DNA of 64,000 nucleotides from Cenococcum geophilum. Its lineage: Eukaryota. The notes beneath the pieces were generated by a model, which did no database searches, was not told the DNA's origin, and worked only from the letters and a program-made list of their open reading frames with translations. The stretch lies in contig CP158635.1 of NCBI GenBank assembly GCA_050273025.1, positions 7,750,001-7,814,000 on the forward strand, in the 5' to 3' direction. Of the stretch, positions 14,801-64,000 are shown one piece after another; position 1 is the stretch's first letter, and each line of letters opens with the position of its first letter. Made by a program: the position numbers and the translations under genes.

Positions 14801-16127
14801 CCTATAGTCTCTCTGGTATTTTAATAGATTATAGCCCTCTATATAGCTTATACCTTATTAGTTTATTTTCTAGTAATCTAAATATTCTTTTATAACTTTT
14901 CGCGCTAAACCCTAAATTCCGTTAATAATGTACTCCTTTTAGAGTCTTAATACTATGCCCGTGGATCTATTATGTCCTTAAGTTATTCCTTTATAGAAAT
15001 CTTCTATAAATTGTTCTGCTATACTTCTTAGGATATACTTTACTTTTTAATTTTTATATATATCTGTTTGTGGATTTTCTAGTTATACTTCTAGAATTCT
15101 TTATACCTAAAAGCTTTTTAGTGACTTATAAACTCTATCTAGTTCTTCTTAAGTTGCTATAATTTTTAGATAATTATACCTAATTAATCCGTCTATATCT
15201 TTTTATAGTAAAGCCCCTAATAGCTTTTCATTATTTTATAGTTTAGCCTTTTAACTTAGAGTATCTGCTCGCGTATTATCTGTACCCTTAGTATACTAAA
15301 TCTCGAAATAGTATTTTGTAAGTATCTCTGCCTATCTAACCTATCTTTAGTTAAGTTCCTTTATTATTAGAAATCCTATTAGGTTTTTATAATCCATTTT
15401 AACTATAAATAGTTTTTCTATACCTTATAAGAATGCTCTCTATTTCTTTAATGCTATAACTATACCTAATAACTCCTTATTGTAGATGTTATAGTTTAAC
15501 TCTAGTAGTGTTATTTTCCGACTATAGTATGCTACTAGATGCTATCCGTTTTAATATTTTTATATAAAGTATGCCCCTAGTATATAGTCTAATATATTTA
15601 TCTCCACAACTGTTTCTAGTCCTAGTTAATATATCTTAAGAACTGGCTCCTAGGTAAACAATCTTTTAACTTTTTTAAAGAGTTTCCTTTACTCCTCTTC
15701 CTATACCTATAGTTCTTCTTTCTTCGTTAATTATATAAATGGTTTAATGTCCTTTAACCATTACGCTATTAACCTTCTATAGTAATTACAAAACCCTAAA
15801 AACGATCTTAACTATATAACGTTCTCTAGTTCCTACTAATTTACTATAGCCTCAATCTTCTTTAGATCTATACTAAGTTAGCCTAGTTTAATAATAAATC
15901 TAACAAAATCGGTCTTTCTAGTAAAGAACTTATATTTCTTAATTGCTACTAGCATTTATTCTTCTTATAGTCTCCTTAAGACCTATTTAATATATTCTCC
16001 ATACTCTTCCTCTGTTATTAAGTAGATAATAATATTATTAAGGTATACTATAATAAATTTATCTAAGTGTTCTCCTAATACATTGTTAATACGCTTCTGG
16101 AATATTACTAGTACGTTTATAAGCCCG

Positions 16128-16213
16128 GGCCGTCGAAAACGGACTCTGCACCTGTATGTGGTGACGGCTACGAACCTAGGTCTTCGAAGTTCAGACTCAG
16201 AGCCAACGCAGAG
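16128..16213 (+). ncRNA. HDV-like self-cleaving ribozyme (predicted)
   Basis: P1 GGCCGTC/GACGGCT (G1.U wobble); P2 CTCTGC/GCAGAG; P3 ACC/GGT; L3 TGTATGT; P1.1 GT/AC; J4/2 C(16203)CAA. Confidence 0.8.
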
Positions 16214-17148
16214 ACGTTGTATAGCGTGCGATAGGACCTAGTGGTCGTGGTTATGAGCGTTATAGGCGGTAGTGAAAATTTTTCAGATAGTGAGATCTCG
16301 AAAACCACTACTGTGGCCCTCTACAATTCAGCTACGCTATTCTTCTATTAAGGCACCTATATAATCCAATGTAGATATACAGCATTTAATAGCATCCCCC
16401 GACCCCCAATAGAAAGCATTAACGACCTCTTATATTAATAAACGAGTAATCGCAAATGAATAAGCAGACGAATAAGCAAATATACGGCCCCTCCTAACCC
16501 CTAGGGCGATCGCCCGCGGAGCATGCGGTCACTTACCGTTTTTTCTACCAAATACTACCTAGCAGCCTGGATTGCAACCCACGGTTTTCCCTGTCTTCTT
16601 TTAACGGAGTGGTGATCCTTAGAAAGGGCCTAGCTAGGGCCTAGGCATAAAAAATACCCAAATATAACACAATATCCCGCTCGCTTATTAGTATTACGGT
16701 GGTTAGAACGGATAAATCCCCCTTACGCCTTTAATAGGCCCTAGGGGGGGGAAGGCATGGCGTATATAGTAATAGTTAGACAAGAAATAGCATATAGGGG
16801 ATGGCCAAGATATGGGAAACAGTAGTACGGCAATCAATTAGCAAGGCCTAGCTAGGACGTAGTAAACCCTAGCTAGGGTAAGCTAGAGAAGGAAGCAGTA
16901 GTTCCTAAGGAGTTCAAACATCTAAGGAGGACAGGACGTAGCCGTAGACCCGTAGGGCCGCCGCTACGGACGGACATGGCAAATTGGGGTTTTTCATCCT
17001 ACTAAGGTGGCTTATAGGGTTTTTCCTCCCCCCTAGCAGCAAGGGTTTTTTCCCGTTAATATTACTTTTCCCTTATATACGGAGTAGTCTGTATGGGGCT
17101 AAATAGCATCTATATCAGACGTTAATCAAAGAATTATTATTATTATTA
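16128..17148 (+). mobile_element. Non-coding ribozyme-headed retroposon copy 1 (subfamily A)
   Basis: 11-bp TSD TTATAAGCCCG (16117-16127 / 17149-17159); (TTA)n tail ~17133-17150; interrupts the Gypsy-A RT; homologous to 50333-51346; no ORF in the track. Confidence 0.9.
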
Positions 17149-20100
17149 TTATAAGCCCGAATTATATAACTAATAGTTTATATAGTCCTTCCTTTAACCT
17201 AAAGGCTGCCTTTTATTTATTGCCTTCCTTAATCCTAATCTAATAGTACGCCCATCTTAGATCTATTTTTATAAAAATTTGCGCATTGCCTATCCTATCT
17301 TAGATTTCGCTAATTAAGGGTAAAGGATACCTATCCTTCCTAGTAATGCTGTTTAACTATCTATAGTTAATACATAGCCTTAGTTTACTATTCTTCTTTA
17401 GTATAAATAGTACTAGATAACCCGCTAATAACTACAATGGTCTAATATATCCCTTTTGTAGGTTTTCCTAGACAAACTCTTTTAGTGCTCTCCCTTCTTC
17501 TTTAGTAAGCTTATAGATTGGAAAGAACTTTAAACTTATTCCCAGTTCCAATTCTATCTTATAGTCCTATACTGTATACTTTAATAGCTTTTTACTTTCT
17601 GGTGACTATAGTTTCTTGCTATACTTATGGTATCTCTTTAGTATATAGCTTAATCCTTTTTCCGTTTCTTTATAGGTTGCTTCTACTTAATACTATACTA
17701 ACTTAGCTTATTGTTGTATTTTACGGCGTTAAGTATTTTTAATATTGACCTAACCTATAACTTAATCGATCTTTAGATTGTATTCCTATAACTAAGGCAT
17801 CCCTAGTACTACCTTATTATTCCCTAATAGTAATATATTAAAAGACGTCTTAATTTATCTCCCTTTAATAGTTAGCTAAATAGGTCCTATTTTAAGGTTA
17901 ATAATGCCTCCTCCGTAGGCTATCGGATCTCCTAAAATTGTTATTAATAGGTAAGGTTGCTCCCTTTATCTATGCGGTAATCCTATTTTCTTAACTACTG
18001 TTAGTAAGATGTGGTTCCTTATTGCTCTACTATCTATTAATACCTTAAACTGTTAATCTTACTACTTAACTTATAAATTTAGGTGTCGTCCTTAAATTCC
18101 TTTAAGGGTTTAAGGCTCTACTACTGGTTCCCTCTGGTCCTATAGGCCTCTACTTTTCCTAACTATTGGCTGCTTAATCCTATTTATACTTAGTCCCTCT
18201 TTAGCTAATACTTAGTTCGCTTTTTATCTTTAATGTATTATAAACACGTATTTTCTAGGTATTCCTACCACTATTATCCGTCTAGGTATTCTTCCGTAAG
18301 GAATCTTCCTAGTTAAAGTATTAAGTCCCCTTAGCTTTATACTTCTACTAGGTGCTAACTATATATATACTTAGCGTTTCTATATTTCGCCTTATCTAAT
18401 AACTAATACATCCTCTTTAGGTACTTTCGGTTCTTATCTTTTAGTGCTCTATATATGTTATATATATCGTCTATATATGCGATCTATGCTAATATATAGT
18501 ATGCTAGGTGTTTTAGGTTAACTCTTAGCTCGTCTTTATCCCTAAGTTTAAATCTTTCTCGTATTAATTTAAGCGTTGCAACTTTATTTATAGGTATTAT
18601 AATTTGCCTCTCACTTCTCTAGTCCTCTAATTGCTCCTTTAGATCTTTTAATATTATAATTAAGGCTCCTTTAATATAACTTATAGCTTTTTCTATAATT
18701 AGGTGGTCTTGGACAACTTTTTTATCTAACTATATATAGAAATTTTTCCACTCGTCGTTATGTCTTTATCTATACCACTTTTAGTATAACCCTTTAAGTA
18801 TATACGGCTTATCCGTAAAGAAGTATCTTCTTATTACTATATTATAACAGCCTTTAGTATATTATTCCTTAAACTTAATTAGGATTCCTAGATCCTCTTC
18901 TTGCTCTAGTTTAGTAAGCTACTTAGCTTTTAGTGTGCCCGTCCTAGGCCTATTAGTAATTCTTTATACTAGTGCTCTATCTCTTATACGTCCTAATATA
19001 CTAGATCTCTTATCTAGTTTCTAATCTTACTATAAGGTAATTCTTGCCCTAAATTCCTTTATGGTTTCTTTTCTTTCGCGTCTTATAAGTGGATCCTTAA
19101 AGTCTTCCTACTTCTTAATCTTGGTATTAGTTTTTTAATCCTTAGGCTAAATACTGTATTCCCCTAGTAAGTCCTCTAGGTCTATATATCTGTCTCCTAG
19201 TCTAACTACTGTTTATACTACAGATTCTCTAACCTATAAAGAAGCTCCTTACCTCTTACTTATGGGTGTCCTTATTTATTCTCTAAATTCTTAGTCCCTT
19301 AGATTCTTTAATTCTAAGCTTGCTTCTGTCTTAAGCTTTACTCCTACCTTAGTCTAACTAGGCTTAGGTATTCTTATCTCGTCTTAAGAGTCTTAAATCT
19401 TACTTATCTTATCTTAAAAGTCTTATGCTTATAGGAAACTCTATCCCGAGCTTATTTATATATCTTTAAACTAAGCTACTGCTCTACTCTATTAGTTTCT
19501 ATTTATTATAGGTCCTTAAGCTTACCTTATCTCATCTTAAGAGTCTTAGTCGTCTTTTATTTTATCTTAAGAATCTTAAGCCTTTGGCCTTTTGCCTTTA
19601 TTAAGTGCCGAAGTAGTTTGCTATTCTACTTCTCTTACGTCTTACAAAGCGATAGACATTATGTCTAGCGGGGTCTTAATCCCTACTAATGTTCCCTATT
19701 CTATAGTGGAATTATCCTTTACCTCTTATATAACATCTCTAAGGTCTACATACTCCTAGTAAGCCGCCTTTATTAAATTTATCGTCCTTAATATCCAATC
19801 TACAAACTGGTTCGTTAGTTCCTCTATACTTTATAAGTATTAACTCCTATAGCCAATAGCTCGCGCTATACTTAGCGTTTTTATAAATCTAATATACGTT
19901 ATTATAATAAAACGCGAAACTCCTAATTAAATATTCTTTTATTCCTTGCAGTACACTATTATCCCTCTATACGTATATGTCTTCCACTATTAGTCTGGTT
20001 TCCTTTATTACATAGTATCTCTAACTATCTTTATAATCCCTCGCGAAGTGACCTTATTTCTCGCAATTTATATAAACTCCCTTTTTAAACTACTGATTTT

Positions 20101-49397: not shown

Positions 49398-49412
49398 TAA
49401 ATTATATATATA

Positions 49413-49526
49413 GGGCTCCATAAAAATCGGCCTCTATACCTCTATACAGTAGAGCCTAGGAACCTAGTAGTTACTATTAGCGTTCTATTAAAATTGTACT
49501 AATTAACTATTAAAGCAAACGCAGAG
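49413..49526 (+). ncRNA. HDV-like ribozyme, RIP-degenerate
   Basis: P1 GGGCTCC/AGAGCCT; P2 CTCTAT(CTCTGC)/GCAGAG; P3 ACC/AGT(GGT); J4/2 GCAAAC. The deviations are C>T or G>A. Confidence 0.62.
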
Positions 49527-50322
49527 ACGTATATACGGCTACGTAGCGTCGGCGCGGCGACATAGTAATGGTGTGAATAATTTTTCGCTAGGAGGGTAAG
49601 CCCTAGCAGAGGCTTAAAAATACGACTATTATACCTTAACGTACGTCGGATTAGCTATTTAAATACGGCATCTACCTACGGCGTCCCCCTTCTTTTTCTG
49701 CGGTATAACAATATTCTATACGGCACCTATATATAACTAAACTATATATACTTCGTAGGCAGAAGGCCTATAATAAGCCTCTTAACTACCTACCCTATAT
49801 ACTACCCTACCTAACGGCCTAGATTTACTAAATACGCAGTATTCCATTATCTCCCCCTATATTCTTTAGCTAGAGAAAAATAAGGGACCTAGGTTAGGGC
49901 CCTAGGACAAAATACCTAGTTTATCCCGCTATTTCTTTAGGGTAGAAGGTTATATAGGACTGGATTTATACTATAAGCAAAAAGGCCGTAGGTAGGCGTA
50001 TATATATATATATAGGGCAGCAAGGAGCTAGGGGTAAGTATACAATATAATACCCTACGGCAACCTATAAAAGCATAGAAGTATTGCTTAAATAGTAGAT
50101 AGGGCAAGATAGGCAATTAGGACACTCCCTTATAGGAGTCTTAGAGTAGCGACCTAACGGTATTTTTCCTCCTATTAATATAGTACAGGTGCTATCTAAA
50201 GGGGTATATACTGTACTACCACTTATATCTCCTTTAGAGGTTTTTTATACTTAACTTATTAGTATTTATCTATATAGACCTTAATTAGGACCGCATTAGA
50301 CATTAATTAAGATTAAATAAAT
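49413..50322 (+). mobile_element. Ribozyme-headed retroposon copy 2 (subfamily B), heavily RIP-mutated
   Basis: Homologous to the reverse complement of 56027-56955; probable TSD AATTATATATATA (49400-49412 / 51352-51364, displaced by copy 3). Confidence 0.8.
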
Positions 50323-50332
50323 AAATTATATA

Positions 50333-51346
50333 GTAGTAGTTCTTTGATTAACGTCTGATACGGATCCTATCTAGGCCTACGCAGACTACTCCGTTATAGG
50401 GGGAAAACTTATGTATTTATAGGAAGAAAACCCTGCAGTTGGGTTGGGGGGGGAAAAACCCTATAAGCCACCTCAGTAGGATGAAAAACCCCGATTTGCC
50501 ATGTCCGTCCGTAGCAGCGGCCCTGCGGGTCTACGGCTACGTCCTGTCCTCCTTGGATGTTTTAAACTCCTTAGGAACCACTACTTCCTTCTCTAGCTTA
50601 TCCTAAGCTAGGGTTTACTACGTCCCAGCCAGGCCTTGCCAATTAATCGCCGTGTCTTATTGTCGTTTCCCATATTTTGACTATCCCCTATATGCTATAT
50701 CTTGCTGACCATTGCCATATACGCCATGCCTCCCCCCCCTAAGGTCTATTAAAGGCATAAGGGGGATTTATCTATAAACTACTACCACACCAAAAGGCGA
50801 GCGGGACGTGTGTGTGTGTGCCTAGGTATCTTTTATGCCTAGGCCCTAGTTACTAGGCCCTCGCCAAGGGTCACCACTCCTTAAGAGGAGACAGGAAAAC
50901 CGTACGGTATTGTCCAGGCTGCTAGGTAGTATTTAATAGTTAATGGCGAGTGACCGCATGCTCCGCGGGCGATCGCCCTAGGGGTTAGGAGGGGCCGTAT
51001 ACTTGCTCGTTGCTCGTTCGCAATCGCTCGTTCGTTAATATAAGGTCGTCAATGCTTTCAATTGAGGGTCGGGGGACGTTGGATTCTGTATATATCCGTA
51101 AGGATTACACAGGGTTAGAATAGGAGAACATAGCAGTAGTCTACTAAGAAGGGGGTACCGTTAGTAGTGGTTTTCGAGATCTTACCATCCCATGTGAAAA
51201 CTTTTCACTACCCCCCATAACGTTTCGACAACCACCAGGTCCTACCCGCAGCTGTGCGACGTCTTTGCGTTGGCTCTACTGAGTCCGAAGACTAGTAGGT
51301 TTGTAGGCCTCACCACGTACAGGTGCAGAGTCCGATTTCAAGGACC
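50333..51346 (-). mobile_element. Ribozyme-headed retroposon copy 3 (subfamily A)
   Basis: Reverse-complement homolog of 16128-17148; (CTA)n tail; 14-bp TSD with one mismatch (50319-50332 / 51347-51360). Confidence 0.88.
51263..51346 (-). ncRNA. HDV-like ribozyme (predicted)
   Basis: P1 GGTCCTT/GAGGCCT (1 mismatch); P2 CTCTGC/GCAAAG; P3 ACC/GGT; L3 TGTACGT; P1.1 GT/AC; P4 CTACTAGTC-TTCG-GACTCAGTAG with a cUUCGg loop; J4/2 CCAA. Confidence 0.75.
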
Positions 51347-54300
51347 AAATTAATTATATATATAACGCCTAAATATCGTATTTAGAAGCTAATTAAGTCT
51401 CAGCTTTATACCCTAAGTAGTAATTATATATAGAATACTGCTTACATACTTTGTAATTAACATAGTGGCAATACTTAAAGCCCTTGCACTAATAGGGTGG
51501 GCTAGCCAGCCCGTTTATATTACCCCCTTATATAAAAGTAGGTAGGGTAGAGGATAGTATAAGGTAGCTAAGCTTTAATAATTTAATATTACATGCCAAA
51601 TATATCGCAATAGGTAACGCGTTAAGGTTTATTCTTTAGCTATATATCGTAATTAAGCTTAATTATTAATAAAACATTAAGGCACTTAAAATCGCCACCG
51701 CTAGTAGGGAGGGTGGCCGACCCGCTCTAGCCATATCCTTATTAATAGAAATGAGCTAGCTGTAGTATAGAAACTGTAGGCACCATAAGTAACGCGTTGG
51801 ACAATTATTTACTAGTAAAGGGTCCACCCTAAGTTCTACGTGGTACTACTTAAATAGCGTTTACCAACGTGAGTAAAGAGCGGCCAACCCGCTCTAACTA
51901 CACCTTTATAAGGATCTACTTTTTAAGGTTAAAGGAAACGGGCAATGTCTTAGACGTGGCGTTATAGCGGATAAGCACCGCCGCCTACCGCATCTATAAC
52001 GCCACTAGCCACAAACCCCTCCTTATAGGCTGCTGCTTGGCTTCAACGCAGTTGCTAAACCCTAACTAGTTTTCATAACGACCACACCCCAAACTGTCTT
52101 TATAGTGAGTTTCTTATAGTAAATATACTTTTTTTTTATCTGGATTTATACTTCTAAAGTCAATACGCTCCCCTAGTGCATTAAATCTTCCTAAAGGAAG
52201 TGTTAGTGCCAGCCTAGTCTAGCTTCTTTAGACCATCCTAGTGCCCCGGTTTTAGTATGCCCGGGTATAACTAGAAAATAGATAGGCAGTAGGTCTTAAT
52301 AGAAATATATAGCAGCATAATTACAAACTTATATAACTGTAGGGCTGCTTTTATATAAGCTTTATAGTGCAAAGAATTAAATAAACAACTTAATTATATA
52401 TATAGCTCTAAAGCCTCTATATATATATAAAGAAGGTAGAGGTAATAAGACATAATAGGGTAATAGGTAACTAAAATAGGAATAGTAATCTGCAATTAAT
52501 ATATAGGGTAGCGTTAACGCTGTCCTAAAGCCTTCTAAGCGGCGATCTTATATCTTGGTACAGTGTCGGTAGTTAGTTATATACCCCCCCAGATTTAACG
52601 GTATAGTTAAAACTATAGAACATAAAATGAAGGCAGAAGCTATACCAAAATAGGAAATTTAGATACAATTTAAGAGTAGTAAAGGGTAGGATAAGAATGG
52701 CATATTGCGAATATTATAAATATTGCGGATATTGCGAATATTACGGATATTACGGATATTGCAAATATTGCAAAGGTGCTAGTTGCTAGATGGAATAGTA
52801 ATCTAATATTAAATATCCACTAAATTTAACTGCTTTATTTATACCTCGTGCTTTTAATAGGGTAAGATCTTAGTAAGGCCGTTAGTAGGCATCTTGTTTA
52901 TAGGGACCCATTATATATTAATCTTTTTAACTTAGACTTCCTATCTTAGCCAGTGCTAATAGACGTCAATATATTAAAGCTTAGTGTTAAGCTTTAGTGT
53001 ATTTTGTCTTAGGAGTTATATAGTTTATATATTGTCGTAGAGCACGATAAATTCGCGTTTTAAATTAAAGCCAATTGCCTTAAAGAATCGTTACCACCAG
53101 ATAATTTTAACGGTAGTAGTAGATAGGGAGAGAAGCTCTGCTTTAGTAGTTAAGCGAGTAATAAATTGCTGTAGGGTTTCTTTCCAATCAATTAGTCCTC
53201 TAAATAGCATAAAAAGATATCCTTAAGAGCTCCGTCTAGTTTCTATATAGTCCGCAAATACTGCGTCGGATGCTCCGTAAAAGGTAACGTCTTCTCCTTT
53301 AGGGTTTCTAAAGTAGACGTAGGCTCTAAATACTTCGCGAGAGTATTTAATAGCTATAGATTTTGTTTCAAGACAGTAAGTAATAGCTTAGTTTACTGCG
53401 TCAAGGTGTTCTTAATTTAGATTAGTAAGGAATTCGGCCAACTTAGAATGCGTATTAGTAATATTAAGTCTTCTAAATATAGCTAGGTATATAAGAGAAC
53501 TAACCCGTTGCTAATAGGCTAGTATTCTTTAAGGATTTGTCTACTAGTTAAACGGAATTAGCCTAGTAAGTAGTAGTATTTTAGGGAACCTTTCTAGCTA
53601 AATATTAAATTAACTGGCTATCTTTTTAATATAGGAGTCTTAGCAGAGCCAGAGCTTTCTACTTACTCAATCTTATTCAATTCAAATTCCTAGGAACTAC
53701 TGTAGGTCTCTTAGTACACAAATCTTATATTAGTGTAGTAGTTTAGCCTTAAATTCTTCCAGTCTCTAATGGTCCTTTTTAGCAAATAGAACAGCAATAT
53801 TGTCTACGTAAAAGAAGATAATAAGTCATCTATTAGTAAATAGGTAGTTAGTGCCTAGTACTAGTTCTAATCCAAATTTAGCTAGTATATTAGTAAGCTC
53901 TTTATACCAAAGTAGTAGTAAGATTTTTAATCTATATAGCGCTATAAGTAGCTTTAAGACATGTCCGTTTTAATTAAATCCTTCTAGGCAGTAGCAGTAG
54001 ATTGGTTTACTAAGCTTAGTGTTTATAAATACGTTTACAGCGTTATACTGTTAAATTTCTAGGTTAAATGCGGCTGCTATAGCCATAAGAGCACGGAATA
54101 TTCAAGCAGCTAGGGTTGCTGTATAGGTCTCTTCTTTAGTAATTTATAGGCCTCCGCGGATATATAGTTGAGCTTTTAGCTTTTAAAGGTAACCGTCGCT
54201 GTCGAGCTTATATTTAAAAACCTATTTTAGTAAAAGGATCTGCTTATTGCCTGCTTCTACTTTTAGTACAGCCTTAAATGTCCCTTAGCGTTTTAGGTTA

Positions 54301-56026
54301 TTATATTCTTTTTCTATAGCCTTTTAAAAGCCAGTAGTTAAAGGGTACTTTCTTAGTTCTTTAAGATTCTTTAGTTTAGGAGGTAGATTGTTATAATATA
54401 GAGATAAGAATAAGGATCTAGTTCGGCTAACGTCCTTTACTAGTCCTATAGTAAATCCAGCATAGTAACCAAATAGGGTAGATAGATTGGCTAGTGCTAT
54501 TATATGCGCTTAACGTTAAATTCATTTAGATCCTTCTAGTAGAATAAGGTCGGTAGAAGGTTTAGCTAAGACTTTATTAGCTCGTAGAGCTATATTAGAT
54601 AGTTCCGGCGAACTTGGCTAGGTAGGAGTTGCTTTAATTATATCTAGGATATCGTCTTAAAGTCCTTATAGTAAGGTGTGTAATTCTAGTAAATCTAAAA
54701 ATACCATTCTGCTAGAAGTTGGTAACTATTTAATATCCTTTATAGGAGGCTCTACCGAATTATTCGATTTAGGCATAGTCGTTTAATCTACATTTAAGGT
54801 AGGTCTATATAGGATATATTTATCCTTAAATTTATCTTTATAGAGAGGTTCTAGTAGACTAATTGTCCAGAGGGTATCTTCTAATACTTCCCTTAGTAGG
54901 TAGTTAATGTCTTAACCCCTAGGGTTATAGAACGAGGTCTTGTTAAATATAATATCTTTAGTTTAAATAACCTTGCGGAGACTTAAAATCTAGATTTAAT
55001 AGATATTAGTTAAATTGTAGCCGACTAAGTGTCCAATTAATGCACGAGGAGCTAGCTTATCTCCTCTTTTAACCCTTTTATCCAGCGTATAGGTCTTGCA
55101 GCTATATACGTGCATATAGGTAAGGGATAGCGTCTTGCCGTAGGCGATCTTGTACGGAGTTTTCCATCCTAGCTATTTATTTGGTGTTTAATTAAGCGTA
55201 TATTTAGTAGTAAGGAAAGCTTCTAGTTCTAAAGATGGGGGTAAGGAAGCTTCTAGCTGCATAGCCCTTAATCGTTCTATAAGGGTTCGTCTAGATCGTT
55301 TAGCTCTGCCATTTTGTTCTTCTATATACGGGGCTTGGTATTTAAAAGCAATGCCTTTATCTACGCACCACGTTTATAGGGTGTCTCCCGTCTATCTAAA
55401 AGCTCGTTTATTATTGCTCTAGAAGAAGACAACGTCTTAGTGAAATTGTATTTTAATTAGCTGGTAAGTCTTGCGAATAGTAGGTAGGATAGTAGCTTTG
55501 TCCTTGTTCTTGGCGGTATATATAAAGTTAAATTTGGAATATGTGCAATAGAAATGCATTATATATCTATCGCCGTTATATCCTAGTTCTCTAAGGCTAA
55601 TAATATTAAATGCTAGCCGTTCAAATGGTTGAGTGGCTAGATATTTATATTCTCGTCTTTAAGAGATCTGCTGCGTGTGCTTTGCTAATAAGCAGACTTC
55701 GCATTCAATTTTAAGCGGTGCTCGTTCGTTGATTAGCTCTTCGAGCTCTACGCCATTAACGTGCTTAAGAAGCTGCTTAATAGCGTCAGGTCCTGCATAG
55801 CCTAGAATTTTATATCATTTTATAGCTATGGCTCCGACTAGTTTACGGGCCATTCTACTTAGTTGAAATCTTCTTATTAAGAAGGTCGATTGAGTTGTTG
55901 AATTTAGGGTATTCGTAGGCTTAGGCTGTCTGTGCACAGAGCTGGCAATAATTAAATCGGCCTTTCTAAAGTAGCAAATCAATTAAATTATAGGCCCTCG
56001 ATTTGATTTGTTAATTTAATAATTTA

Positions 56027-57170
56027 TATAAGATTCAATTTACCGTCCGACCTAGTCCCCCTAATGGGTCCACACAGACTAATTCCTATGGGAAAAACCT
56101 CCTTACTGAGAAAAACCCCATTTTTAAGTGTACAAAAAACCCCCAGGGGAGACGTGAGAGGTAATATTCCAGATAACATCCATACTACATCAACGGGAGG
56201 AAAAACACTGTTAGGTTGCTGCTTTGAGACTCCCTTTATACAGGAGTGTCTAAATACCTATCTTGCCCTATCTGCCATTTAAACCATCTTTGCTATATTT
56301 ATATATTGCTTATCTAAGTCGTGTGCCTATCCCTAGCTTCTTTTCCAAGTCTCCTGTAAATATCTCCTAATAAATAACACTTGCGTTCCGCCTGGGCCTA
56401 TATACTAAGGTCTCTTATCCACTCCTCTATTAAAGGGTTTCTATAACGGGGTGTATAACTTGGTATCGCTTTTGCCCTAGGGCCCAAACCCAGGCCCTTA
56501 TACCTATTCGTGAGGTATAGAAGGACAATCTAGTATTTAATAGGGGGCCTAATCCCTATAACTAGATACCTAGGTTGCCGGATAATGTTAAAATAGGGGG
56601 CCTCTACTACGCTTAGGGCGCGGATTGCTTGTGTATGTATAAAGATGCTATACGGTGTATATAGTATTCATAGGAGGGAGGGGGTACGCCGAAGGGATGA
56701 TACTTGTCGATTTAATGTCCAAATATGTATATTAGAGACGTAGTAGCGGTGTTCAAACTTTTTGCTAAGGCTCACCCCTTAGTAAAAAGTCTTTGCACCA
56801 CCACCACGTCGCTGCACAGGCGCTGCGCAGCCGTATATACGTCTCTGCATTCGCTCTAGTAGTCTATTAACACGATCTAAATAGAACATCAATAGTAGCT
56901 GCTAGGTTCCCGGGCTCCACCGCATAGGGGTGCAGAAGTCGCTTTTCTGGAGTCGTCTTTTTAACTGGTCTGGCGCCAAGGCCTGTGAAAACTCTGCTGT
57001 TTTAACGGCGTCAAGGGTTGAGTATTCGAAGGCCCCCTCTAGCCACAACGTAGCGCTGCTGCATTAGTAACAGACGAGATCCTCTCTCTTAGCTTGACCA
57101 TGCGGACAAGATGAGACGGAAAGGAACCCCCATAGGACCGTATGGGTCGGATCTCGATTTTGGTGTTCCT
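56027..57170 (-). mobile_element. Ribozyme-containing retroposon copy 4 (subfamily B) with an extra ~215-nt 5' module
   Basis: 16-bp TSD TTAATTTAATAATTTA (56011-56026 / 57171-57186); body homologous to 49413-50322. Confidence 0.87.
56843..56955 (-). ncRNA. HDV-like ribozyme, internal, with damaged P1
   Basis: P1 CGACTCC/GGAGCCC (2 mismatches); P2 TTCTGC/GCAGAG; P3 ACC/GGT; L3 CCTATGC; GGGAA after P1; J4/2 GCGAAT, matching the HDV genomic J4/2. Confidence 0.7.
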
Positions 57171-62785: not shown

Positions 62786-64000
62786 TCAATCACTCGTCAA
62801 TGAAACCTTTTCGAGCTGATGTAGCTCTGCCGGCAGATCCTTCAGAACCCCCATCTTTGCAATCCTGAAAGCAAGGCCACAAATCGACCTCTTCTCCTGT
62901 TTTCCCGCATCGTTCTCGAACCAGGCCCAGGCACTATCAAGCTGGTCTAGGATGCCGTCCTTTTCAATAATCTCCCGATCGTTGGCATCACCACCCGCCA
63001 GGATCTTCGGCATCAACCATCCTGTCAGCACATATTGGAGCCCTAGTCGCTCTTCGGATGTAATTTCGCATCGATGAAATGCGTCTTCGACTTCCGTGCG
63101 ATCCCGAGAGAACTTCTGTAGCCACATGACGGCGCTGACCATGATCTTGCACCTGTACATGACCTCTGGTTCCTTGGCCAGAGATTTCTTCTCGTGTGCT
63201 TTTCCAGCTGCGATCTCGTCTGCATCGGACTCTGAGAGGATGTGATCAATCAGACATATCATGGTGTCCATGCTGGGGTTCGGTGTGAAGGGCGCATACT
63301 TCTTCATTATCTTCTTCAGCTCTAGATCTTGGTCCTTAGGAAATTTAAGACCCTTGAAAGCATTGCGCACAGCAAGCGGGTAGTCCTTTTTCTGGACTTC
63401 TAGGAACTTTTGAAATATGTCCAAGTCTTCCTTAAATTCTTTCGCCCGATTCGACTCTTTAAGTTCCTGCAATTCGTCAAGGTACGCGCCCAGTCTATGT
63501 TTATTGCCAAATCGGCTACGTGTTCGAGCCATGACGAGATGGTGCAGCTGCTCAAGGAGCAAATCTCCAGACTGGACGAGACCGTTCAAAGCGTCGAGAA
63601 TCCTTTCTTCCTCTACGGACGCCACTCCTTCCATGCTCTTGTACAGGATATCATGGCCTGCTTCTGCCCAGGCGTGTGTCATTGCCGACACGACCTGGAT
63701 CTCGACCATATCGGTCGCTTTCCAGTCGTACTTTTCAGTACCATGATCTGGCTTCATGCGTACTCGGTAATGTTCCGCAGTATAGCCCAAGTTTCGTGGC
63801 CGGTAACCACTCTTTCTCGGTTCTGGAAGTTCCTTCGGATCATGAGGCCTCTCAACGAAGTCAGGCGGTTTGTCTCCGAAGATGGATTTGATAATGGTCT
63901 TGACGGTGTCGCGTTGGATCTGGCTCGGCATATAGAGGATGATACGCACGCCCGCAAGGTCAACGATGTCCTCCATGATTTCCTTTGGATCGGCATAGTG
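62786..64000 (-). CDS. RelA/SpoT synthetase-domain protein (small alarmone synthetase-like), 5'-partial
   Basis: Intact ORF of at least 396 aa with normal GC and no RIP-type stops. Motifs DLAGVRII, GYTAEHYRV and EIQV..AMTHAWAEAGHDILYK. The frame stays open past 63976 to the window edge (HYADPKEI-MEDIV..). Confidence 0.9.
   Translation of the reverse strand, partial: HYADPKEIMEDIVDLAGVRIILYMPSQIQRDTVKTIIKSIFGDKPPDFVERPHDPKELPEPRKSGYRPRNLGYTAEHYRVRMKPDHGTEKYDWKATDMVEIQVVSAMTHAWAEAGHDILYKSMEGVASVEEERILDALNGLVQSGDLLLEQLHHLVMARTRSRFGNKHRLGAYLDELQELKESNRAKEFKEDLDIFQKFLEVQKKDYPLAVRNAFKGLKFPKDQDLELKKIMKKYAPFTPNPSMDTMICLIDHILSESDADEIAAGKAHEKKSLAKEPEVMYRCKIMVSAVMWLQKFSRDRTEVEDAFHRCEITSEERLGLQYVLTGWLMPKILAGGDANDREIIEKDGILDQLDSAWAWFENDAGKQEKRSICGLAFRIAKMGVLKDLPAELHQLEKVSLTSD

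Follow-up and report, generated by a model that had tools for sequence, protein, structure and literature searches.

Several non-autonomous retroposons begin with a ribozyme of the hepatitis delta virus (HDV) type, and they are the closest described counterparts of the element family reported here, four copies of which lie in a 64-kb stretch of contig CP158635.1 (hereafter the window, meaning the whole stretch of DNA that was analysed). NARTc is the non-autonomous partner of L1Tc in T. cruzi and carries the Pr77/L1TcRz head (PMC3383444, PMC3185411, PMC4035085); the first ~77 nt of NARTc were described as an HDV-like ribozyme that sets the RNA's 5′ end (PMC3383444). Short internally deleted R2 elements (R2 SIDEs) were likewise described as non-autonomous elements with a ribozyme head (PMC3414825). 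In fungi, a variant class of HDV ribozymes was reported with 230 examples from 26 species and with cleavage in P. chrysogenum and A. niger, in addition to 11 canonical fungal HDV ribozymes from an earlier search; the variants were said to have "widely variable gene associations", and the main text of that report never uses the word "retrotransposon" (PMC5640933). A fungal non-autonomous retroposon resembling short interspersed nuclear elements (SINEs), Eg-R1 of Blumeria, has also been described (bioRxiv 10.1101/242271). Our search of the literature, which did not cover Repbase and Dfam, found no fungal retroposon with an HDV-like ribozyme head. To our knowledge, no such head has been described for Eg-R1.

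On the basis of the modelled fold and of the comparison between copies, we consider it probable that the elements in the window belong to a high-copy, non-coding retroposon family of the type lacking long terminal repeats (non-LTR), with an HDV-like head, which is predicted to cut the transcript 5′ of its first base, G1. Similar to NARTc, the family is non-coding, dependent on a long interspersed nuclear element (LINE) and high-copy, with abundant transcripts and an HDV-like fold at its start. Unlike NARTc, it resides in another host kingdom, has no detectable sequence relation to that element, ends in a (TAC)n tail, and has a head that measures about 90-115 nt and includes a long P4. It resembles R2 SIDEs in combining a ribozyme-type 5′ end with a 3′ end that serves the reverse transcriptase and in lacking any open reading frame (ORF), and R2 ribozymes, as they have been described, in that P1 covaries and the core of P3, L3 and P1.1 is conserved (PMC3774820). 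However, R2 is site-specific in 28S rDNA and co-transcribed by RNA polymerase I, whereas the copies here are dispersed at AT-rich sites beginning with TA. The fungal HDV variants have in common with the present heads an HDV-class fold, many copies per genome and variable neighbours, but according to their description they typically place C-G at the cleavage point, contain a loop E within P4 and separate P2 from P3 by an additional base (PMC5640933), while in this family G-U or G-C forms the first pair, P4 has the shape of a simple hairpin (loop E was looked for by eye only) and P2 abuts P3. Going by that published description, the heads appear to fit the canonical HDV consensus rather than the fungal variant class, and the family is closer to NARTc or SIDE-type elements than to strict SINEs. 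A preliminary description of this DNA had raised the possibility of an undescribed family; no fungal precedent was found in the literature, but such novelty would be overstated, since this kind of element is already published in the form of NARTc and R2 SIDEs, and HDV ribozymes of fungi are published too.

Exactly four head-bearing copies were found in the window by BLAST within it, and a covariance model run with filters off gave the same result, with E-values of 2e-23 to 2e-9 for the four copies and 0.29 for the next best match. The copies and their target-site duplications (TSDs) are as follows.

16128-17148, + strand: copy 1, subfamily A1, full length, 1021 bp (BLAST; model 112 bits)
16117-16127 and 17149-17159: TSD of copy 1, 11 bp
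17134-17148, + strand: simple-repeat tail of copy 1, (TTA)n, a decayed form of the family (TAC)n
49413-50322, + strand: copy 2, subfamily B, heavily mutated, with its head at 49413-49526 (BLAST; model 53.8 bits)
49399-49412 versus 50323-50332 plus 51361-51364: TSD of copy 2, 14 bp, the 3′ copy being split by copy 3
50333-51346, - strand: copy 3, subfamily A2, with its head at 51346-51263 (BLAST; model 91.2 bits)
51360-51347 and 50332-50319: TSD of copy 3, 14 bp with one mismatch
56026-57170, - strand: copy 4, subfamily C (BLAST)
56840-56955, - strand: internal decayed head of copy 4 (model 49.6 bits)
57185-57171 and 56025-56011: TSD of copy 4, 15 bp

According to BLAST within the window, copies 1 and 3 are 79% identical over their whole length and copies 2 and 4 ~75% identical in parts only, and a conserved head is common to all four. 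The 5′ end coincides with the first base of the predicted P1 in copies 1, 2 and 3. The preliminary description is thereby borne out in its account of four related inserts at these positions, of TSDs of 11-16 bp (11-15 bp in our hands, in all four copies), of a G1 directly after the TSD in copy 1 and of copies 2 and 3 starting at G1. As for the relative age of two of the copies, copy 3 was inserted tail-to-tail into the 3′ TSD of copy 2 and is thus later than copy 2 (50319-50332, 51347-51364); deleting copy 3 together with one of its TSD copies gives back a perfect 14-bp TSD for copy 2.

The family extends well beyond the window. A scan of metagenome contigs with a head-derived pattern yielded at least 121 head loci, at least 120 of which are family copies; among the listed loci, L021 is a chance match and the heads of L018, L024, L057, L064, L100, L106 and L113 are incomplete. 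Elements measure about 0.9-1.05 kb; a conserved head of ~90-115 nt leads into a body that varies, and behind this come a conserved 3′ end and the (TAC)n tail. Grouping of the heads by P4 length and P1 sequence gave the following subfamilies.

A1: head starts GGCCGTC; at least 64 loci and copy 1
A2: head starts GGTCCTC; at least 7 loci and copy 3
B1 and B2: heads start GGGCTCC or GGGCTTC
B form with a short J1/2: at least 3 loci
C: copy 4 and at least 6 loci
Singletons among the loci listed: L011, L058 and L065

Two extra heads, L028:511-599 (-) and L058:358-473 (-), were found by the covariance model and had been missed by the exact pattern; since they lie in the flanks of other copies, copies appear to form clusters, with spacings of a few hundred bases at most, like copies 2 and 3 in the window. 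In L011, a head of ~151 nt with its own compensated P1 variant (1354-1505) is followed by unrelated, unmutated DNA and lies ~430 bp downstream of an ORF for an amino-acid permease (PF13520, E 1e-41), and it could be a shortened copy or a solo head in the 3′ region of that gene.

The ends of the elements are those of a retroposon. An exact TSD of at least 10 bp is present in 39 of the 47 complete A/B loci (range 10-17 bp, median 14), and it touches G1 with zero extra bases in 35 of these 39, the other four having 1-2 extra bases; TA stands at the TSD start in 35/39 as well. In the first run such a TSD was found in 39/58 loci, compared with 3/58 when a control flank 40 nt further upstream was used. 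Column conservation drops from ~0.9 to ~0.4, the level of the AT-rich background, exactly upstream of G1 (65 A1 and 8 A2 copies), and 13 contigs in DNA run X1 match from 16128 onward and are unlike the sequence before it (agreement 0.51). When the 5′ junctions are tabulated in this way, as the preliminary description had suggested, the ends of most A and B copies thus stand at G1 and are not scattered. The 3′ ends are conserved, are of two types and are followed by (TAC)n, which has often decayed to (TAT)n or (TTA)n, so that of the simple-repeat or A-rich tails first proposed only the former are seen. The absence of a credible ORF was confirmed: in 53 copies, the longest ATG-initiated frame on the sense strand has 35 aa at the median and 108 aa at most, and its place is not consistent between copies, and a 147-aa open frame in L040 has no Pfam match. 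With TSDs, a 3′ simple-repeat tail, no ORF and many dispersed copies, the family has the hallmarks of a non-autonomous non-LTR retroposon: it is TSD-flanked, non-coding and moved by a non-LTR mechanism, with target-primed insertion at TA-initial sites.

The junction between tail and TSD is ambiguous by 2 nt, because the TSDs start with TA and the tails are (TAC)n. The combination of a TA target with UAC tail repeats suggests microhomology priming between the nicked target and the RNA 3′ end, and the two conserved 3′ ends within subfamily B hint at two partner LINEs. A search for the partner LINE with two tail patterns matched only the four copies in the window, and Pfam, run on the 13 longest of the 15 ORFs of at least 130 aa from the listed loci, showed no reverse transcriptase domain. 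Four loci in which the head is followed by other DNA (L011, L018, L046 and L059) were considered as LINEs and rejected, as they look shortened or interrupted instead.

The head follows the order P1-P2-P3-L3-P3′-P1′-P1.1′-P4-CNAA-P2′, and its five helices can be drawn in A1, A2, B1 and L065. In copy 1 the predicted parts are as follows.

16128-16213, + strand: predicted HDV-like ribozyme head, from G1 to the end of P2′; the strict descriptor (see below) matches here only
16128-16134 with 16163-16169, + strand: P1, with a G16128-T16169 (U) wobble at the predicted cleavage site
16144-16149 with 16208-16213, + strand: P2; 97.9% of cells paired, no covariation
16150-16152 with 16160-16162, + strand: P3, enclosing the 7-nt L3 at 16153-16159
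16154-16155 (in L3) with 16170-16171, + strand: P1.1
16176-16200, + strand: P4 hairpin
16203-16207, + strand: J4/2; C16203 is the candidate catalytic base, followed by C-A-A and an additional C ahead of P2′

P2 and P3, P3′ and P1′, and P1′ and P1.1′ abut directly, which matches the zero-length connectors of the published consensus (PMC5640933). The first pair is purine-pyrimidine: of 104 distinct heads, 69 have G1-U and 21 have G1-C. The L3 sequence is UGUACGU in A heads and UCCACGC in B1 heads, and it aligns with L3 of the HDV models; a conserved U and G of this loop have been described as forming a reverse wobble in HDV-like ribozymes (PMC3774820), and both are present in the A and B1 heads, while in subfamily C the first L3 base is C. 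J4/2 of window copies 1-4, the only informative ones, reads CCAAC, CCAAC, CAAAC and CGAAT, so that all four have C-N-A-A with a variable N and one extra pyrimidine before P2′. In every subfamily a P4 hairpin closes beside J4/2 with differing stem sequences; its size is 21-23 nt in A and about 48 nt in B, C and L065, and the outer stem of L065 is wholly different.

Comparison between copies carries most of the case for this fold. A covariance model derived from 24 heads, with its structure limited to P1, P3 and three pairs of P4, found 105 heads (in the window and 99 loci), 14 A1 loci and 8 incomplete or chance loci being left out of that search. P2 and P1.1 were added to the model alignment as pseudoknots, and pairs were counted from this alignment and from a sequence-anchor parse, plain MAFFT having misplaced the P1 5′ strands of A against those of B. 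Standard pairs occupy 90.7% of 2183 cells in the 105 heads, compared with 84.0 +/- 0.4% after shuffling (0/500 as high), and pairing falls to 28-43% when the partners are slid by 1-3 columns. In 164 cells both sides have changed, compared with 74 +/- 6 after shuffling (0/500 as high). The sequence-anchor parse, in which G1 is set independently of pairing, gives 90.9% paired versus 83.1% shuffled (114 rows). Both-side changes occur at four of the seven P1 pairs (model alignment, 105 heads), with C-G/G-C at pair 3, U-A/G-C/C-G at pair 5 and U-A/C-G at pair 6, and at both pairs of P1.1 (G-C vs C-G; U-A vs C-G), where A has G-C with U-A and B1 and C have C-G with C-G. The nested double-pseudoknot order of HDV that was first read from single copies therefore fits in A1, A2, B1 and L065, with covariation in P1, P1.1 and P4. 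Many of the remaining unpaired cells are C-to-T or G-to-A changes of the repeat-induced point mutation (RIP) type, an origin which is not to be assumed for the subfamily-wide ones. The RIP-like mutation pattern and the labels of the RNA runs are the indirect grounds for regarding the host as most likely a fungus in which repeats undergo mutation of this type.

When the heads were searched alone (100-126 nt) against 4227 Rfam families, the top three were drz-agam-1, HDV_ribozyme and HDV-F-prausnitzii. The B1 head of L080 matched drz-agam-1 (16.9 bits, E 0.23) and HDV_ribozyme (14.9 bits, E 3.5), and the A1 head of L044 matched HDV-F-prausnitzii (13.4 bits, E 1.4) and drz-agam-1 (13.0 bits, E 1.9). 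All four alignments are full length and in one register, with the core of P3, L3, P3′ and P1′ nearly letter for letter, and they start 2 nt upstream of G1 for HDV_ribozyme, 1 nt inside or at G1 for drz-agam-1 and at G1 for HDV-F-prausnitzii. These Rfam models leave the pseudoknot pairs unscored. A strict descriptor (P1 at least 6/7, P2 6/6, P3 3/3, P1.1 2/2 and C-N-R-A, without P4) was also used, an earlier one requiring a perfect 4-bp P4 base having been dropped because it missed copy 1. The descriptor search proposed in the preliminary description did return a match at 16128, but one that is no rarer than chance.

A number of observations weigh against a ribozyme at the head. The Rfam scores of 13.0-16.9 bits are far under the gathering thresholds of 37-50 bits, and at window scale Rfam did not find a ribozyme family. 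The single strict descriptor match in the window compares with a mean of 1.6 and a maximum of 5 in 40 dinucleotide shuffles, and the same descriptor passes 40 of 121 listed heads and has 9 matches elsewhere in 432 kb; a single match proves nothing, and the case therefore rests on position and on comparison between copies. J4/2 is one base longer than the published C-N-A-A consensus, and neither P2 nor P3 shows covariation. In all 8 A2 copies U stands opposite C at P1 pair 3, where both sides have changed and no pair is restored, and B2 has A-A or A-G where P1.1 needs G-G; nevertheless, the B copies with a TSD have exact 5′ ends in 7/7 despite the B2 mismatches. The scan pattern fixed P2′, J4/2 and the AACCTA stretch in all loci outside the window, so the constancy of these parts among the loci is uninformative. 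The compensatory counts rest on an alignment fitted to P1, P3 and P4, and since the copies are related, they correspond to about six independent events and not to hundreds.

Reads from a stranded RNA run (X21, 2026, bearing the species label of the best-matching DNA runs), two DNA runs (X1 and X5) and a metatranscriptome (X15) were mapped to 16000-17300. In X21, 16000-16087 is covered at a depth of 0.2-0.9 and 16132-16175 at one of 1083, after which values of hundreds to thousands persist until about 17050. About 95% of this depth has the first mate on the - strand, which in most stranded libraries would represent + (element) sense RNA. X15 reaches a depth of 4.8e5 within the element, compared with 24-37 in its upstream flank. 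The signal does not come from carried-over DNA, because the flank is deeper than the element in the DNA runs. Most reads carry G or C where copy 1 has A or T, for instance C instead of T at 16157, and only 87 of 10278 mapped reads are at least 99% alike to copy 1; these differences indicate that copy 1 is mutated and that the RNA derives from other, unmutated copies. The last few bases are commonly lost in second-strand synthesis, and owing to this possible end loss the position of the RNA start can be given no more precisely than 16128-16137. Abundant sense RNA with a boundary at the start of the head, and almost none upstream, speaks for a defined 5′ end. Two aspects of these data also count against a cleaved end: the sole pile-up of molecule ends in X21, comprising 315 molecules at 16137 beside an adjacent depth of 1014, lies 9 nt inside G1 and not at G1, and the boundary is as compatible with a transcription start at G1 as with cleavage, both of which would give the same picture.

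Two further features of the RNA were observed. The minority strand makes up ~15% of X21 depth over 16836-17055 and ~2-5% nearer the head, and this rise in the 3′ quarter suggests some antisense transcription. As well, RNA depth goes down to 26-41 over 16352-16439, and thousands of reads diverge after 16314 and 16327; the expressed copies hold a different segment at 16314-16480, closer to copy 3, and the segment in copy 1 is probably a local rearrangement rather than an intron.

Subfamily C offers an internal contrast, since it carries a leader in front of a decayed head.

56956-57170, - strand: 5′ leader of subfamily C, ~215 nt, conserved in 7/8 aligned C-type copies

The eighth aligned copy, L092, is 5′-truncated. 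Conservation across the C-type copies indicates that the leader is part of the element and not transduced flank. In the C head, P1 reads CGACTCC against GGAGCCC, with C opposite C at position 1 and A opposite C at position 3, and the outer P4 stem has two mismatches. Between the TSD (12-16 bp) and the leader, 1-4 variable bases are present in 6/6 C copies with a TSD, a raggedness that contrasts with the zero extra bases before G1 in most A/B copies. Ends are exact where P1 is intact and ragged where it is broken, as a ribozyme-defined end predicts, and this contrast represents a single evolutionary event. The C leader (also L043, L047, L070, L071, L098 and L058) has short motifs in common with the ribozyme head, and by eye its long-range pairings, one of 8 bp among them, follow a head-like order; a GCUAA stretch is present as well. 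In Rfam, however, it has no HDV-family match, and its fold energy is no better than that of shuffles (z = -1.58). The leader may represent another head that has diverged, or a module with promoter function.

In the mechanism proposed for the family, the head would cut the transcript 5′ of G1 and thereby free a defined element RNA from an upstream transcript. A LINE enzyme acting in trans would then recognise the 3′ end of the element and copy the freed RNA. Insertion proceeds by target-primed reverse transcription at TA-initial sites, giving TSDs of 10-17 bp. By analogy with Pr77 in L1Tc and NARTc, the head may also be an internal promoter. In subfamily C, the old head has lost its P1 pairing and has a new ~215-nt leader in front, and the ends are ragged.

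Among the alternatives, the one that survives best, although we regard it as unlikely, is that the head is a structured 5′ module with an internal RNA polymerase II promoter, that G1 is the transcription start, and that the fold is non-catalytic or a relic. A fixed start would give the sharp RNA boundary and the exact genomic 5′ ends just as well, expression is very high compared with the flanks, and Pr77 of L1Tc/NARTc was described as a head that can be a promoter (PMC3383444). The exact 5′ ends that A2 and B2 retain despite mismatches in P1 or P1.1, and the lack of significance of a single-sequence descriptor match, point in the same direction. Such a promoter, however, leaves the compensatory changes in P1, P1.1 and P4 unexplained, and it gives no reason why transcription should begin at the very base that opens P1, or for the lead of three HDV-type models in Rfam, nor does it fit with the loss of exact ends in C along with P1 pairing. 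Promoter and ribozyme roles can moreover coexist, so that this alternative excludes only the catalytic part of the proposed self-cutting head.

It is very improbable that the head is an ordinary conserved 5′ stem-loop without a pseudoknot, to which the HDV-like scheme happens to fit by chance. Shuffled sequences do yield 1.6 strict and ~256 relaxed descriptor matches per window, and P2 and P3 show no covariation, yet the P1.1 pseudoknot pairs change on both sides at both positions, the match lies at the exact element start in three subfamilies, and L3 and J4/2 align to HDV models.

The last alternative, a classical SINE transcribed by RNA polymerase III (Pol III) with a head from a tRNA, 5S, 7SL or snRNA gene, would account for a non-coding, high-copy, LINE-dependent family with exact 5′ ends, but it can be dismissed as scarcely credible, because ARAGORN found no tRNA in the window, Rfam found no small-RNA family there at gathering or E-value level nor in the heads searched alone, the element body contains sense-strand runs of at least 5 T past which the RNA continues, and a length of ~1 kb exceeds that usual for SINEs. 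Given no ORF, no tRNA and no small-RNA match, the elements are non-coding retroposons that depend on a LINE and lack a head of the Pol III type. The claim of a missing Pol III head in the preliminary description hence holds, whereas its term SINE-like is apt for a non-coding element that depends on a LINE, but not in the strict sense, in view of the length and the head.

Whether this is the first fungal retroposon family in which an HDV-like ribozyme of the element itself generates the RNA 5′ end, with subfamily C as a natural control, is in our judgement an evenly balanced question. If true, many "orphan" fungal HDV ribozymes with variable neighbours may head mobile elements, and the link between ribozymes and retroposons would be extended from insects, other animals and trypanosomes to fungi. 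It would also supply a likely biological setting for fungal HDV ribozymes that cut but lacked a role. With abundant RNA and several subfamilies, one of them decayed, the family would be a tractable system, which could address whether it is the self-cutting head that enables a non-coding element lacking its own promoter to spread. For annotation, the finding names a high-copy repeat family that escapes standard RNA and SINE screens.

Finally, some features of the surrounding DNA were noted. The window is AT-rich, with ~30% G+C and islands of 40-50%. The DNA flanking copy 1 (16000-16127 and 17149-17275) is itself a repeat, with an X1 depth of ~2e5 compared with 2e4-9e4 for the element and with almost no RNA, so that copy 1 is nested in another, silent high-copy repeat. 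The G+C-richer end of the window possesses a 396-aa ORF (62786-63976, - strand) with a RelA_SpoT domain (PF04607, 29.9 bits), whose closest protein-atlas clusters are bacterial, with scores below 0.9.

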